A DNA stretch of 64,000 bases from Candidatus Sungiibacteriota bacterium (GCA_016201505.1 JACQCQ010000013.1:80830-144829); one strand, 5' to 3'; counted from the first letter of the stretch, positions 25,076 to 29,995 are shown. Notes: generated from the sequence alone by a model not told the origin. Translations and numbers: made by a program.

Positions 25076-26412
25076 TCTAAACGCACCTCGCATAAGGATC
25101 AGGCTTTCGCCTGCTAGATTTCGATCTCGGGCAATCTCCACGCCGCAGGCAAGGTGCACCTCGCCAAAAGCACGTCTCCGCTGCAGCGGAGCAAGACGAC
25201 CCGAGCTCTGTTATCCCGAACATCGGTACGATTTTTTTTTGCGATGCAGATACCGAGGTAGCGGAGGAAGCAGACGCCCAGTAGAGGATCGGGCGAAGGC
25301 ACTACCTACTAGCTAACCCGATCATACGTGATGTCCACCCCCGCGCTTCTCATCACCTTGTCCAGTGATACTCCGCAAGCGCCACGGGATTTCCTGCATC
25401 GCAAACTGAATTTCTATTTTTCCTTATCTCATCCTGGAGTTTTCGCCGCGCCAAAATTTTTATAAATAAAAACTTAGGCGGGCGTCCGACCTTCTAGGAT
25501 CACTGTTCAATCAGTTTGCTAGTTTTCTAGTTGACTAGTTAACTAGTAGGTCGCTAAGCGACCGGAACTGATGAACTGACAGATTCCTAAAAAGAATATG
25601 TTCCATCGACAGCTTCCGCTACCGATGCCTTGTTCATGTTCTCCCTATGTCGCCATAAGGCATGGACTATATCATCACCCTTTGTTGCAATGTCTTGATT
25701 TTTCTCGGATGCCAACTTCCGATAATCTTCAAGAAGTTTTCTTGAGATTTTTTCGAAATAAACATTCGGAAATAATCTGGATCTATGTGGAAACTTGGAT
25801 TATGGATTTTCCCCGATTGGATTCCAAAACTTATCAGCATTTGTTTAAGTTTCTCCAGTTTGATGCGATCATTCTGCACCAGTTGAATGTAAAACCTTGC
25901 GGATGGACTTCTTGGAATTCCTCCCTCGGCATCAAAGAATCCTCTTAAATACGCTATTTTTTCCTCAGCTGAATTTAACCGCTTAGGATCGAATTTTGTA
26001 TCTAAGAATTTTGCTCTTGTTTCCAATACATACACTTTACGATTTCTGCCTTCGCGATATATCCAGGAGGTATTATCCGTTAGCGCTAGGCAAGATTTTA
26101 GTACTGATAACCAATCAGTACCTAGCTGCGCAAACCGGTGTCTTTGGTTATACCGATTGAAGGTGCCATCGTGAAGCGCACCGAGTAAGTATGCTCGGCA
26201 TTCTGCAACAGAAGGGGCTTGGCGTGTAGTCTCTGAGGCGCCTCCGACGTTACGTCGGAGTTGCCTGCTGATTGTCTGCGCTTTTCGCATTATCACTTCT
26301 AGAACTATTTTAGCTCTATAAGTAGCAAAAAGATACTCAGGTTTTCCAGCATATAGCCAAGTTTTTATGTGAGAATTACTCCTCACAAGTCGCAACGGAC
26401 GCAGTCTGCGCC
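25076..26412 (-). mobile_element. About 1.3-kb intron-like insertion near the 16S 3' end (E. coli position about 1506-1520) encoding a LAGLIDADG homing endonuclease.
   Basis: 16S exon sequence (positions about 1400-1505) occupies 26396-26497 and the terminal about 22 nt occupy 25051-25072. The intervening 1.3 kb has no 16S similarity and carries the LAGLIDADG ORF. Confidence 0.6.
25667..26395 (-). CDS. Double-motif LAGLIDADG homing endonuclease (intron-encoded). The track ORF begins with a TTG; the start is uncertain.
   Basis: Two LAGLIDADG-like motifs: LLGALHDGTF and YLRGFFDAEGGI. Length 242 aa. Confidence 0.8.
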   Translation of the reverse strand: MRLVRSNSHIKTWLYAGKPEYLFATYRAKIVLEVIMRKAQTISRQLRRNVGGASETTRQAPSVAECRAYLLGALHDGTFNRYNQRHRFAQLGTDWLSVLKSCLALTDNTSWIYREGRNRKVYVLETRAKFLDTKFDPKRLNSAEEKIAYLRGFFDAEGGIPRSPSARFYIQLVQNDRIKLEKLKQMLISFGIQSGKIHNPSFHIDPDYFRMFISKKSQENFLKIIGSWHPRKIKTLQQRVMI

Positions 26413-26497
26413 TACGACTTCGTCTTTGTCACCGATCCTACCGTGGGCCACCATAAGTGGACTTCGGGTATTACCAGCTCCCCTGACGTGACGGGCG

Positions 26498-27232
26498 GTA
26501 TTAAGATCACTTCTGTGTCTTACACCACTGGGCGAACGGTTTTCCCGTACCCTAGCGGTTTCTTATATCGCTTTCGCGATATAGATTCGTCCCTTCCCGA
26601 GCACATATTTTTGGAGTCTATTGACGAAATTTATCAATAGGTATATAAATTGTATACGAGGAGGTGAAGGATTATGTTGGGTATCGCGGTTCCACCGATC
26701 CCTGCAAACGCGGGTGTCAGTAGCGATCCGGAAGGACTGCTCGCGCTCCTTCTTCTGATGTTCGTCGTTGTTCCGTCAATCATCGTCATTTTCGGCGGCG
26801 CGATCATGGCGAACGTCGAAGACTGAGATCAGCGGACGGCTTTCACCCCCCACAGCGGCCTCCAGGAGGTCGCTTTCAATTTCTCCAAAAATATGTGCTC
26901 GGTACTATGGATTCTGCTGACTTCTCAATAAGCATCAAGATAAAATTGCTTTTATCCTTTACCTTTCGGACTTAATAAGATCTCCTTCGGTCACCGAATA
27001 TACCATTCTCTCACATCTCGATACTCCGTATATAGCGTAAAATTTGTGCAGATGACTTCTCCATGTACTCGAAGGATCGTCGATCTACGCTACCTATTAG
27101 CGAGTATTCAAGCTATAAGACATATACTTTCGCCCTTCATCCTGAGGATCACTCCTCGAAGGACTGCGATTTCATTTCGCGACTTCTGCAAATCGTGGTG
27201 GGATTTAAACCCACTGGCATACTCGGCTGCAA
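26498..27232 (-). other. About 735-nt insertion in 16S at the conserved 1400 region, between GACGGGCGGT and TGTACAAG.
   Basis: Universal 1392 primer-site sequence is split: ...GACGGGCGGT at 26485-26494 and ...GTACAAAGCTCGAGAACGTATTCACC at 27235-27262. Confidence 0.6.
26674..26826 (+). CDS. Candidate 50-aa hydrophobic peptide with a strong Shine-Dalgarno, encoded inside the 16S insertion (antisense to the rRNA).
   Basis: AGGAGGTG is 5 nt upstream of the ATG. Translation MLGIAVPPIPANAGVSSDPEGLLALLLLMFVVVPSIIVIFGGAIMANVED has one predicted TM helix. Confidence 0.3.
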   Translation: MLGIAVPPIPANAGVSSDPEGLLALLLLMFVVVPSIIVIFGGAIMANVED

Positions 27233-27838
27233 AGCACCCGAGTACAAAGCTCGAGAACGTATTCACCGCGGCATAGCTGATCCGCGATTACTAGCGATTC
27301 CATCTTCAAGGAGTCGAGTTGCAGACTCCTATCTGAACTGGGGCGCACTTTGATGGGATTAGCTCCGCCTTGCGGCTTGGCAACCCATTGTATGCGCCAT
27401 TGTAGCACGTGTGTAGCCCAGGGTATCAGAGGGCCATGCTGACCTCGCGTCATCCCCTCCTTCCTCTCCCGAAAAGGAAGCAGTCTCTCCTGACACATAT
27501 AACAGAAGACAAGGGTTGCGTTCGTTAACCCACTTAAGGGAACAGTTCAAACCACGAACTGACGAGGGCCATGCAGCACCTGTGATTGCCGTCTTGTGAA
27601 CACACCGCGGTTTCTCGCGGTTTTTGCAATCATTTCAAACCCTGGTGAGGTTCCTCGGTTGTCATCGAATTGAACCACATGCTCCACCGCTTGTGCGAGC
27701 TCCCGTCTATTCCTTTGAGTTTTAGCCTTGCGGCCGTACTTCCCAGGCGGCAGATTTAACGCGTTAGCTGCGCCACTCCGAGGGTCGATACTCGAAATAG
27801 CTAATCTGCATCGTTTAGGGCGTGGACTACTGGGGTAT

Positions 27839-28920: not shown

Positions 28921-29204
28921 GCGCGAGCGCTTTCGATCCCATTCGCTCCCCACGCTTTCGTCTGTGAACGTCAGGACAAGGCCAGCAACATGCCTTCGCC
29001 TTTGGTATTCCCTATGATATCAACGGATTTCACCCCTACACCATAAGTTCTAGTTGCCTCTCCTTGCCTCTAGTCGTGCCGTTTCGAATGCGGCCTACGA
29101 GTTAAGCCCGTAGATTTAACACCCGACTAACACGACCGTCTGGAGACCCTTTACGCCCAATAAATCCGGATAACGCTTGAAGCCTTCGTATTACCGCGGC
29201 TGCT

Positions 29205-29332
29205 GGCCAGGTAGTAGAAGTTCGACTGCGCGCGAGCGCAAATTATTTTCGAACATTTAATTTTCAGAGCCATGACAGATAGTGCTCCCAACTACAGAAA
29301 TCTTCATTTCATAGTCGAACTTTCACTACCTG
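29205..29332. repeat. 128-bp hairpin intervening element inserted in the 16S 530-loop region. Terminal repeats CCAGGTAGTAGAAGTTCGACTG / CAGTCGAACTTTCACTACCTGG. Family member 2 (IVS/MITE-like).
   Basis: The insertion splits the universally conserved GCTGCTGGCAC (519 site) into GCTGCTGGC | element | CTGGCAC, with a CTGGC direct repeat. The 22-bp terminal inverted repeats are near-identical to those of the 28613 element. Confidence 0.65.
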
Positions 29333-29344
29333 GCTGGCACGAAA

Positions 29345-29995
29345 TTCTACCGCCAATTTGGACTATATCATCACCCCGATGTTCATCGGGGGTCCCGCGT
29401 GTAGTCTCTGAGGGCTCTCTGCTATAAGTTCGATAGACTAGTCTATCGAACTTATAGAAACAGGTTGCCTGCTGATTGTTTCGTTGCGCGTCTTTGCAGT
29501 TTGCAAAACATTTCCGCGGACACAACGAAGTGTTCCAGTCCCGCAAGCCTCCCCACCGCAATACACTGATGTATTGTAGTGGCATGACTCACAGGATTCC
29601 CGAATCCATCTTTTCTTACGGCCAATAGGGCCGCGGGATTGCGATTTGTAACTACTCCGCCTTCGCTAAAAGCTTCGGCGGACAAGTCGTTACACTCGCA
29701 GACAAATCGGGAACATATAGCGAGATTTTCTTATGACGTATTACTACGCCAACTTCGCACCAAGTTTTTCTAACTTCACGAAGTTTGCAGCTTCTTATTC
29801 ATCTGGTACGGTCAGTCGTGCCTCGCTCTAGCGAACCACTCTCAATTTTAAATTTCCAATTTCTAATTTTCAATGAATGTCCTAATGTCTCAATTTCCAA
29901 AGGTTTGGGGTATTGAATCATTAAGAATTGACTGAAAATTGCAAAATTGATCATTGCAAATTGTGTGCCTCACAAAAGTGAGACACGACTTCTTC
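29345..29995 (-). other. About 540 extra nt in the 16S region between E. coli positions about 400 and 515. It contains the operator type 2 palindrome and sequence blocks shared with the LAGLIDADG intron.
   Basis: Blocks GCGTGTAGTCTCTGAGGG (29396-29413) and GTTGCCTGCTGATTGT (29464-29479) also occur at 26222-26238 and 26261-26276 within the LAGLIDADG ORF region. Conserved 16S resumes near 29995 (CTTTACAGACCGAAGTCCTTCTTCCTGCACGCGGCG). Confidence 0.5.
29422..29457. promoter_or_regulatory. Operator type 2, copy d: CTATAAGTTCGATAGACT|AGTCTATCGAACTTATAG, 36-bp perfect palindrome, located inside the 16S insertion.
   Basis: Identical 36/36 to the copy at 35243-35278. Confidence 0.55.

Follow-up and report, generated by a model that had tools for sequence, protein, structure and literature searches.

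What does it mean when two short blocks of sequence recur in the same order at two places within one ribosomal RNA (rRNA) gene, with something different between them at each place? This question arose from a 64-kb stretch of a metagenome-assembled Candidatus Sungbacteria genome, which belongs to the Candidate Phyla Radiation (CPR); the whole of this stretch is referred to below as the window. Its 16S rRNA gene lies on the minus strand and was found by Rfam in pieces (28823-30525 and 27198-27923). The initial annotation had pointed out that the blocks GCGTGTAGTCTCTGAGG and GTTGCCTGCTGATTGT occur both in an intron encoding a LAGLIDADG protein and in a second insertion of the same gene, where a 'TrpR-type' palindrome lies between them. 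It had proposed that the second insertion is a decayed paralogue of the first into which the palindrome was swapped, or that the palindrome itself is mobile. We find that the blocks are strands of the catalytic core of group I introns, a known and indeed textbook feature of these ribozymes, and that the palindrome appears to be a later addition to one of the introns. The explanation as a whole that we consider likely combines conserved group I cores with a palindrome acquired in the peripheral element P6 and tolerated there, this palindrome being most likely the putative operator of a TrpR-family regulator.

Shared blocks and the group I intron core

The first block is present as an exact 17-mer, and the second as an exact 16-mer, both in the intron at about 16S position 1506 (the one with the LAGLIDADG frame, hereafter the 1506 intron) and in the insertion at about position 516 (Table 1), in the same order and within 1 nt of the coordinates first given. 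A copy of the 17-mer with one mismatch (28045-28061) and a three-mismatch relative of the 16-mer (28263-28278) lie in a third insertion, at about position 788. Two further blocks are held in common, namely the 18-mer TGGACTATATCATCACCC, identical in the 1506 and 516 introns (25663-25680 and 29359-29376), and TTCCAGCATATAGC, found at 26344-26357 and 28528-28541. Between the first two blocks there is a small hairpin, CTCCGACGTTACGTCGGAG, in the 1506 intron and a perfect palindrome of 36 bp, CTATAAGTTCGATAGACTAGTCTATCGAACTTATAG, in the 516 intron, as had been described. Low complexity, which the initial annotation had named as a way in which the resemblance might be undone, and chance were ruled out as the origin of the blocks by shuffling the sequence, since shuffles do not yield such matches (three or more matches to the 17-mer were obtained in 0 of 100).

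Read as RNA from the minus strand, the blocks are Q (ACAAUCAGCAGGCAAC), R (CCUCAGAGACUACACGC) and S (GGGUGAUGAUAUAGUCCA) of the classical P-Q-R-S conserved core of group I introns. In the Rfam alignment of the match to the 1506 intron they fall on P4'/start of P6, on J6/7-P7-P3' and on J8/7-P7', and the fourth common block is the P element. Q comprises the 3' strand of P4 together with the first pairs of P6; R spans J6/7, P7 (5' strand) and the beginning of P3', and S comprises J8/7 with the 3' strand of P7. The correspondence with the core in Rfam family RF00028 is one-to-one for Q, R and S, P7 and P6 covary as expected, and no difference from that core was found.

Three group I introns interrupt the 16S gene, near positions 516, 788 and 1506. 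In all three the final base of the 5' exon is U, able to pair with a G of the guide in P1, and the final base of the intron is G. The 1506 intron matched the Rfam model Intron_gpI (RF00028) with 59.5 bits (25643-26423), above the gathering score of 50, and its open reading frame (ORF) matched Pfam LAGLIDADG_3 with E=4.6e-13. Its 5' exon ends in ...GAAGUCGU (AAGUCGU) before an intron that begins with A, the guide being GCGACUU, and the intron ends in ...AACAUG before AACAAGG. Q pairs with the P element (26344-26357) in an unconstrained fold, and 23 homologues at the same site were found among the metagenome loci listed. From an in-frame AUG at about 26292, the LAGLIDADG frame traverses Q, P6 and R (26222-26292, minus strand) before it reaches the endonuclease domain, so that the core blocks are nominally coding as well in this intron.

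The 788 intron has its P element at 28528-28541, Q at 28263-28278, R at 28045-28061 and S at 27970-27980, with a 5' exon ending in ...AAUGGGAU (UGGGAU) before C and an intron ending in ...AAAAUUG before UAGAUACCC. Its R element is what had been taken for a third, partial copy of the first block; the A-to-G change in R is matched by U-to-C in its S (GAUACAGUCC), which makes a compensatory P7 pair. About 200 nt with a 60-aa ORF separate Q from R. Two small ORFs are present on the minus strand of this intron, one of 60 aa (28063-28245, in P6) and one of about 50 aa (~28334-28486), with a strong Shine-Dalgarno-like sequence before each; neither was matched in Pfam or NCBIfam. In the 516 intron, the 5' exon ends in ...AACUUCGU before GAAG (with a 1-nt ambiguity at the site), the guide GCGAAGUU is complementary to it and P1 contains a U.G pair. 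Two candidates were found for its 3' end, ...CUACCUG before GCCAGCAGCC (29208) and the older-looking ...AAUUUCGUG before CCAG (29338).

Group I introns in the 16S genes of CPR bacteria (Patescibacteria) were reportedly described by Brown and co-workers in 2015. Multiple group I introns per gene at recurrent sites, LAGLIDADG_3 ORFs restricted to 16S, ORF-less introns beside ORF-bearing ones and a group-II-like insertion near position 1400 have been documented in CPR 16S genes (Tsurumaki et al., 2024, PMC11270868), and the gene in the window conforms to this picture. That survey makes no mention of palindromes or regulator sites in the intron periphery, whereas here the tip of a P6 element is a copy of a genomic palindrome.

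Introns for comparison came from one metagenome scan with a degenerate Q...N{27,57}...R pattern, which gave at least 120 loci and 132 Q..R matches, including two of the window; the counts below are among the matches listed. All 132 Q..R spacers fold as a hairpin, with lengths across the whole range of 27-57 nt that the pattern allowed. The third pair of P6 is A-U in 67, G-C in 41, U-A in 15, C-G in 4 and G.U in 3 (98.5% paired), and the variable pair of P7 is A-U in 96, G-C in 3 and broken in 0, the 788 intron of the window having the G-C form. Since the spacers are all hairpins and the pairs covary, the segment that separates Q from R can be identified as P6, a hairpin at the periphery that varies freely. 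An exact R 17-mer is present in 82 of the 132 introns and is therefore uninformative on close kinship; the ACAAUCAGCAGGCAAC form of Q is rare (3 of 132), and the S 18-mer was present in 2 of the 99 introns listed for it. Strong purifying selection on the core across the intron family, and not copying between introns, would account for the identity of the blocks, while P6 would project away from the core and be free to vary in length and sequence. Conserved cores and the intron loading of CPR 16S genes are textbook matters and are not evidence of intron duplication.

Relationship between the 516 and 1506 introns

The second insertion and the LAGLIDADG intron are elements of the same kind, group I introns, and their spacers are homologous as P6; this part of the earlier interpretation holds. 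Its other part, in which the 516 intron is seen as a paralogue of the LAGLIDADG intron, decayed and deprived of its ORF, we regard as extremely improbable. The idea draws on the exact Q, R and S common to the two introns, including the rare form of Q and the same S 18-mer. Pairwise alignment of the 1506 and 516 introns (blastn-short), however, found three core blocks of 16-18 nt at 100% identity and otherwise no similarity. Their core distance is 6 of 58 positions, which is no smaller than that between the 516 intron and unrelated introns (the same value for metagenome loci L019, L073 and L074; median 9-10), and L074 is much closer to the 1506 intron, at a distance of 2. The rare Q also occurs in the site-516 intron of L074, a relative of the 516 intron itself. 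Moreover, P1-P3 of the 516 intron are homologous to those of the site-516 intron of L105 and not to those of site-1506 introns, no remnant of LAGLIDADG was found in the ORFs of the 516 intron, and its P8 is a 20-nt hairpin.

Positional homologues of the 516 intron were found in three of the metagenome loci, L105, L095 and L074, the first of which is about 85% identical to it over P1-P3. The sequences of P2, P3 and P8 are not the same in the window, L105 and L074, but compensatory changes preserve the pairing in each; P2, for example, occurs as GGCGUA/UACGUC, AGAUCUG/CAGAUCU and CACUGUA/UACGGUG, with a GUAA loop in every one. The insert that splits the P element of the 516 intron (175 nt; predicted fold -83.9 kcal/mol, z=-7.5) has a counterpart of 63 nt in L074, at the identical point (UAUAUG^...^CUGGAAC). 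In view of its own homologues, the covarying P2, P3 and P8 and the L074-like insert, the 516 intron appears from these sequences to be a conserved intron lineage of its own, not a wreck. The notion that the split P element marks it as a decayed ribozyme was likewise weakened by the L074 insert and by a canonical domain fold. As an observation apart, the inside of the P4 5' strand, where these site-516 introns carry their insert, is an unusual spot for group I expansion.

A base of P6 with the form CAAC...GGCGCCU, typical of the lineage of L074 and the window's 516 intron, was found in only one of 24 site-1506 introns, that of the window. An exchange of P6 modules between the resident introns was considered on this account and is kept as a weak hint; about five characters are involved, and the flanks match site-1506 homologues.

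The palindrome at the tip of P6 and the TrpR-family gene

In minimum free energy folds of the 516 intron, the palindrome is stacked as a coaxial P6b on P6 (GGC/GCC) and P6a (CUG/CAG), and as RNA it is predicted to form a hairpin of -24.2 kcal/mol (z=-6.6). The unconstrained fold of the P4-P6 domain has canonical P4, P5/P5a, P6 and P6a, and a swap of the palindrome for GAAA left the rest unaltered. The P6 spacers of L105, L095 and L074 are 30, 43 and 29 nt long and form ordinary short hairpins, that of L074 (CAAC, a 7-bp stem with a GUAA loop and GGCGCCU) being built on the plan of the small hairpin in the 1506 intron of the window. Because these three homologues carry ordinary short hairpins, the palindrome is, on comparison of the sequences, a secondary acquisition in P6 of the 516 intron. 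The proposal that it was swapped in is borne out in that it is derived, and the survey of the intron family found it in none of the 130 other Q..R spacers listed. A likeness to the palindrome core in P6 of one further locus, L094 (GGATAGACTAGTTTATCC), was judged coincidental, as it overlaps the common ...TAGTAGGATCCT of the P6 3' strand.

The P6 tip of the 516 intron would have been replaced by, or extended with, the 36-bp palindrome, which as RNA would make a 16-bp helix with a CUAG loop, stacked on P6/P6a; folding suggests that the ribozyme fold would be undisturbed. Four other copies of the palindrome are present in the window (Table 1), where shuffles gave an expectation of 0. The copy at 35243 and the intron copy agree in all of 40 nt, of which 4 lie past the palindrome, and because of this identity the intron copy was most likely copied from another genomic copy. 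It most likely persisted because the P6 tip would be among the few spots of the 16S gene where 36 self-complementary bases are harmless; both the mechanism of copying and neutrality at this site we infer. A regulator-associated palindrome as the P6 tip of an rRNA intron is mildly novel, and it offers a clean natural case of a peripheral ribozyme loop accepting a foreign module of 36 bp, with site-matched introns that show the ancestral short hairpin.

Two of the other copies bracket HY220_04120, a gene for a protein of 112 aa. A word-index homology search with this single protein retrieved itself only, and a full HMMER search and a profile were needed to place it. With phmmer, 554 relatives were found, and homologues at E down to 1e-20 carry the Pfam domain Trp_repressor (PF01371). 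The profile found 1346 relatives, with PF01371 on nearly all of the 120 listed; several of these, from CPR phyla, are named YerC/YecD. Searched against the PDB, the family profile matched 3frw, 3kor and 3g1c at E~1e-13. The AlphaFold (AF2) model of the protein (mean confidence, pLDDT, 87.6) consists of six helices, and a Foldseek search with it returned 3g1c, 3kor and 3frw at the top (probability 1.00, TM score 0.67-0.80), followed by Escherichia coli TrpR. The model has the all-helical fold with a helix-turn-helix (HTH) that is expected of a TrpR-like protein. A transposase-like role was rejected, the matches in that direction being weak and at HTH level only (IS3, E=0.022) and the fold TrpR-like.

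The association between gene and palindrome extends beyond the window. In eight homologue loci examined (L123-L130), a lineage-specific perfect palindrome was found 4-48 nt upstream of the start codon in every case, and a second copy just past the stop codon in seven; these palindromes are 16-36 bp long (22-36 bp in seven of the eight). The window itself encodes a second TrpR-family paralogue (36576-36986; PF01371, 48.6 bits; 36548-37018 with its palindromes), which has a distinct palindrome, CACTCCAATACTTTAAAGTATTGGAGTG, 6 nt before its ATG and another copy touching its stop codon. A solo copy of this second palindrome, at 31831-31858, lies in a 1.1-kb non-coding region, 1.3 kb upstream of the 16S gene. 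In all eight homologue loci, and for both paralogues of the window, the gene is accompanied by a private palindrome, and the palindromes co-vary with their genes. The palindrome family is tied to a TrpR-family gene, and the P6 palindrome, to judge by its sequence, belongs to the site family of that particular regulator. Because TrpR and HisR bind palindromes of about 20 bp and because the palindrome-gene-palindrome layout is conserved in other CPR genomes, the palindrome is most likely the putative operator of this regulator, whose gene lies 13 kb from the intron copy. The arrangement 'palindrome - yerC-like gene - palindrome' is conserved in CPR bacteria and apparently previously undescribed.

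Bacillus subtilis YerC is HisR, a TrpR-family repressor that recognizes 20-bp palindromes with a lineage-specific consensus (PMC9413887). The system in the window resembles TrpR and HisR in its small all-helical fold, in having the cognate palindrome beside its own gene and in operator sequences that are specific to the lineage. It differs in that the palindromes are perfect over 32-36 bp (compared with about 20 bp), lie on both sides of the gene, have another sequence and include one copy in an rRNA intron; the CPR proteins, in addition, form a subfamily of their own, usually of 130-150 aa. The palindrome GTTCGATAGACTAGTCTATCGAAC matches neither the TrpR nor the HisR operator consensus (TGTAcTnGTnnACnAgTACA; cacTTTAnnnnnnTAAAgtg, quoted in PMC9413887), and only its central ACTAGT recalls trpO.

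Several observations weigh against the explanation that we favour. On the side of the introns, the 516 intron scored 26.5-27.1 bits in Rfam (29339-29787; E=9e-5 to 6e-4), under the RF00028 gathering score of 50, because the score is lowered by large inserts in P4, P6 and P9, and the 788 insertion had no RF00028 match at E<=10, probably because inserts of about 200 and 300 nt hide it from the covariance model. The two were assigned from motifs of the core, rules for the junctions and a small number of homologues, the 788 insertion from motifs and junctions. With its P element split by the 175-nt insert, the 516 intron is not certain to be competent in self-splicing. On the side of the regulator, the 112-aa protein itself is sub-threshold for both Pfam Trp_repressor (PF01371; E=8.7e-4, 19.7 bits, cut-off 27) and TIGR02531 (E=1e-3, 19.5 bits, cut-off 42.2). 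As for the palindrome, the search for genomic copies covered the 64 kb of the window, no target-site duplication was seen at any of the five copies on inspection of their flanks, and consensus scans gave no clear sigma-70-like promoter at the copies. All five are perfect over 32-36 bp, and the differences between them are mirrored in both arms (AAAAG/CTTTT, ATTAG/CTAAT, GTACGA/TCGTAC). An operator of about 20 bp needs no such palindromy, which hints at a structural or mutational process. The palindrome was also considered as an intrinsic terminator or a sigma-70 promoter, and was set aside as neither when consensus scans gave no convincing match at the copies.

This mirrored perfection may leave room for processes driven by hairpins or template switching, or for a role at the RNA level. 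The palindrome could, as the initial annotation allowed, be a small mobile or recombinogenic element of the REP or MITE kind that spreads by way of hairpins or template switching, with intergenic DNA and tolerant intron loops as its landing sites and the TrpR-like gene with its terminal palindromes as a selfish cassette; we hold this to be possible but unlikely. The 40-nt identity between the intron copy and that at 35243, which runs 4 nt past the palindrome, would fit such spread, as would the mirrored differences, by which palindromy itself is maintained. Zero-loop perfect palindromes with arms of at least 12 nt number 14 in the window, the longest of 48 bp, and about 1.25 per 64 kb across 668 kb from comparable loci, an excess of about ten-fold. 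A second family of hairpin elements with apparent 4-nt flanking duplications is present in the introns, and no two loci have the same surroundings of the yerC-like module. Mobile palindromes are known, moreover, from organelles whose genomes contain many group I introns (PMC7218506, PMC4478555). The GC clusters of yeast mitochondria (PMC4478555) and the palindromic repeats of Fusarium and double-hairpin elements of Allomyces (PMC7218506) are, like those of the window, short self-complementary intergenic repeats in genomes with many group I introns; they differ in being organellar, often based on GC or A/T tracts, and without a tie to the gene of a DNA-binding regulator. Against mobility, the five copies have neither target-site duplications nor a conserved flank and are confined to 20 kb, the remaining 44 kb of the window being free of them, and the protein has the fold of TrpR and not that of a transposase or nuclease. 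A scan of 185,579 species genomes, a set to which the source genome evidently does not belong, gave only two chance matches to the palindrome core, in unrelated phyla, and viral contigs gave none; on these grounds the palindrome was rejected as a widespread repeat.

A role of the palindrome as RNA we think very unlikely. The long helix might serve, for example, as an RNase III-type site for destroying the excised intron or processing the precursor, the intergenic copies being hairpins for mRNA processing. For every copy a perfect RNA helix of 16 bp is predicted (-19 to -24 kcal/mol, z -5 to -6.6), mirrored substitutions preserve the palindromy, and every copy lies within a minus-strand transcription unit. 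The helices are, however, all Watson-Crick, with no G.U pair, and carry no signal of strand. Each TrpR-family paralogue goes with a palindrome of its own in a tight and conserved pairing, which points instead to recognition as DNA, and a copy 5 nt before a start codon would be an odd processing site.

Finally, the copy in P6 could be a working regulatory site, at which a dimer of the TrpR-family protein bound to the palindrome within the 16S gene would act as a roadblock or pause for RNA polymerase and couple rRNA output to its ligand, the P6 tip having been 'chosen' as the sole place in the gene able to embed an operator. This we consider rather improbable. It would accord with the fact that the intron copy is among the two longest and most perfect (18-bp arms, like that at 35243), unlike a decaying accident, and with the solo copy of the paralogue's palindrome upstream of the 16S gene. 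Regulators are few in CPR genomes, and the rRNA operon is usually single, which would also favour it. Yet none of the three other sampled site-516 introns has a long palindrome in P6, a recent copy would be perfect without selection too, and, to our knowledge, repressor roadblocks within rRNA genes are not an established mechanism. We give a similarly low probability to the bolder pair of readings in which either TrpR-family regulators gate rRNA transcription, through the site in the P6 tip and the paralogue's site upstream of 16S, with the intron as a neutral carrier, or the palindrome-gene-palindrome module is an unrecognized selfish element from which solo palindromes have reached tolerant sites.

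The most useful by-product of this analysis is the conserved CPR module of a yerC-like gene between palindromes, with extra solo copies. Regulation in CPR bacteria is almost unexplored, and a regulator whose putative operator is easily read would have a regulon open to direct testing; through its copy within the 16S gene, a link to ribosome synthesis becomes a possibility.

Table 1. Introns, core elements, palindrome copies and regulator gene in the window (positions counted from its first nucleotide)
Feature	Position	Strand	Basis
Group I intron at ~1506, with LAGLIDADG_3 ORF (25667-26395 as listed) within P8	25635-26413	-	Rfam, Pfam, junctions
Q of 1506 intron (block GTTGCCTGCTGATTGT)	26260-26275	-	aligned to AAuCCGCAGCCAA of Rfam consensus
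P6a hairpin of 1506 intron (7-8 bp stem, 3-nt loop)	26241-26259	-	Rfam alignment and folding
R of 1506 intron (block GCGTGTAGTCTCTGAGG)	26222-26238	-	aligned to GUUCAaAGACUAAAcG of Rfam consensus
S of 1506 intron (end of P8, J8/7, P7 3' strand)	25663-25680	-	aligned to aUgAAGAUAUAGUCu of Rfam consensus
Group I intron at ~788	27842-28935	-	P/Q/R/S motifs and junctions
Group I intron at ~516, ORF-less	29208-29777	-	motifs, junctions, sub-threshold Rfam match, site-516 homologues
Q of 516 intron	29464-29479	-	exact block, Rfam alignment, fold
R of 516 intron	29397-29413	-	exact block, Rfam alignment
S of 516 intron	29359-29376	-	18-mer identical to S of 1506 intron
Structured insert of 175 nt splitting the P element of 516 intron (UAUAUG^CUGGAAC)	29539-29713	-	fold
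Perfect 36-bp palindrome as P6 tip (P6b) of 516 intron; member of the yerC/yecD-associated palindrome family	29422-29457	-	sequence, fold
YerC/YecD-type TrpR-family regulator gene (112 aa, HY220_04120), bracketed by two palindrome copies	15805-16143	-	profile, fold
Palindrome copy 5 nt upstream of regulator ATG	16149-16180	.	sequence
Palindrome copy 86 nt downstream of regulator stop, 38 nt upstream of M50 peptidase gene	15687-15718	.	sequence
Solo palindrome copy, intergenic, GTACGA variant (both arms), 225 nt upstream of DNA polymerase III delta'-like gene	20418-20449	.	sequence
Solo palindrome copy, intergenic, between GH1 gene and gene for 609-aa protein	35243-35278	.	sequence

Other palindromes, hairpins and insertions in the window

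Other long palindromes were found at 1381-1420, 17034-17069, 24688-24727, 45508-45541 and 50759-50806. Two of the long palindromes have the core TTTTATCCGATCGGATAAAA flanked by GTAC, and that at 24688 follows the same GTAC...CGATCG...GTAC plan; they may represent operator families of further regulators.

Two hairpin elements with near-identical arms (CCAGGYAGTAGAARTTCGAC) are located at 29207-29333 and 28618-28686, with no further copies in the window. The position of the former coincides exactly with the 3' splice site of the 516 intron, between direct repeats of CCAG; the latter lies inside the 788 intron with AAAA flanks. Both look MITE-like. Short hairpins built on CCCGTTAGAA / TTCTAACGGG (31800-32480 and 35070-35345) lie on either side of the solo palindromes at 31831 and 35243, and more of them are found throughout the 1.1-kb non-coding stretch that precedes the 16S gene. 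A short way past the 3' end of 16S, amid a CTAG-rich run, there is the sequence ACTAGTTAACTAGT (25534-25547), which would be that of the trp operator core of E. coli.

The 16S gene has a further insertion of about 725 nt (26510-27235) at about positions 1391-1400, with a group-II-D1D4-1 match in Rfam (36 bits, 26884-26960) and a perfect inverted repeat of 20 nt (26597-26616 / 26883-26902). The insertion occupies the group-II-like site that has been named 16IS9 in CPR bacteria; here it has no LAGLIDADG ORF. The 3' tail of the gene (~25590-25625, minus strand) reads ...GAUGGAACAUAUUCUUU where GGAUCACCUCCUU is expected; the anti-Shine-Dalgarno sequence is apparently altered, or a further insertion may mask the true 3' end. 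GGAG-type sites are nonetheless present at several of the intron ORFs.

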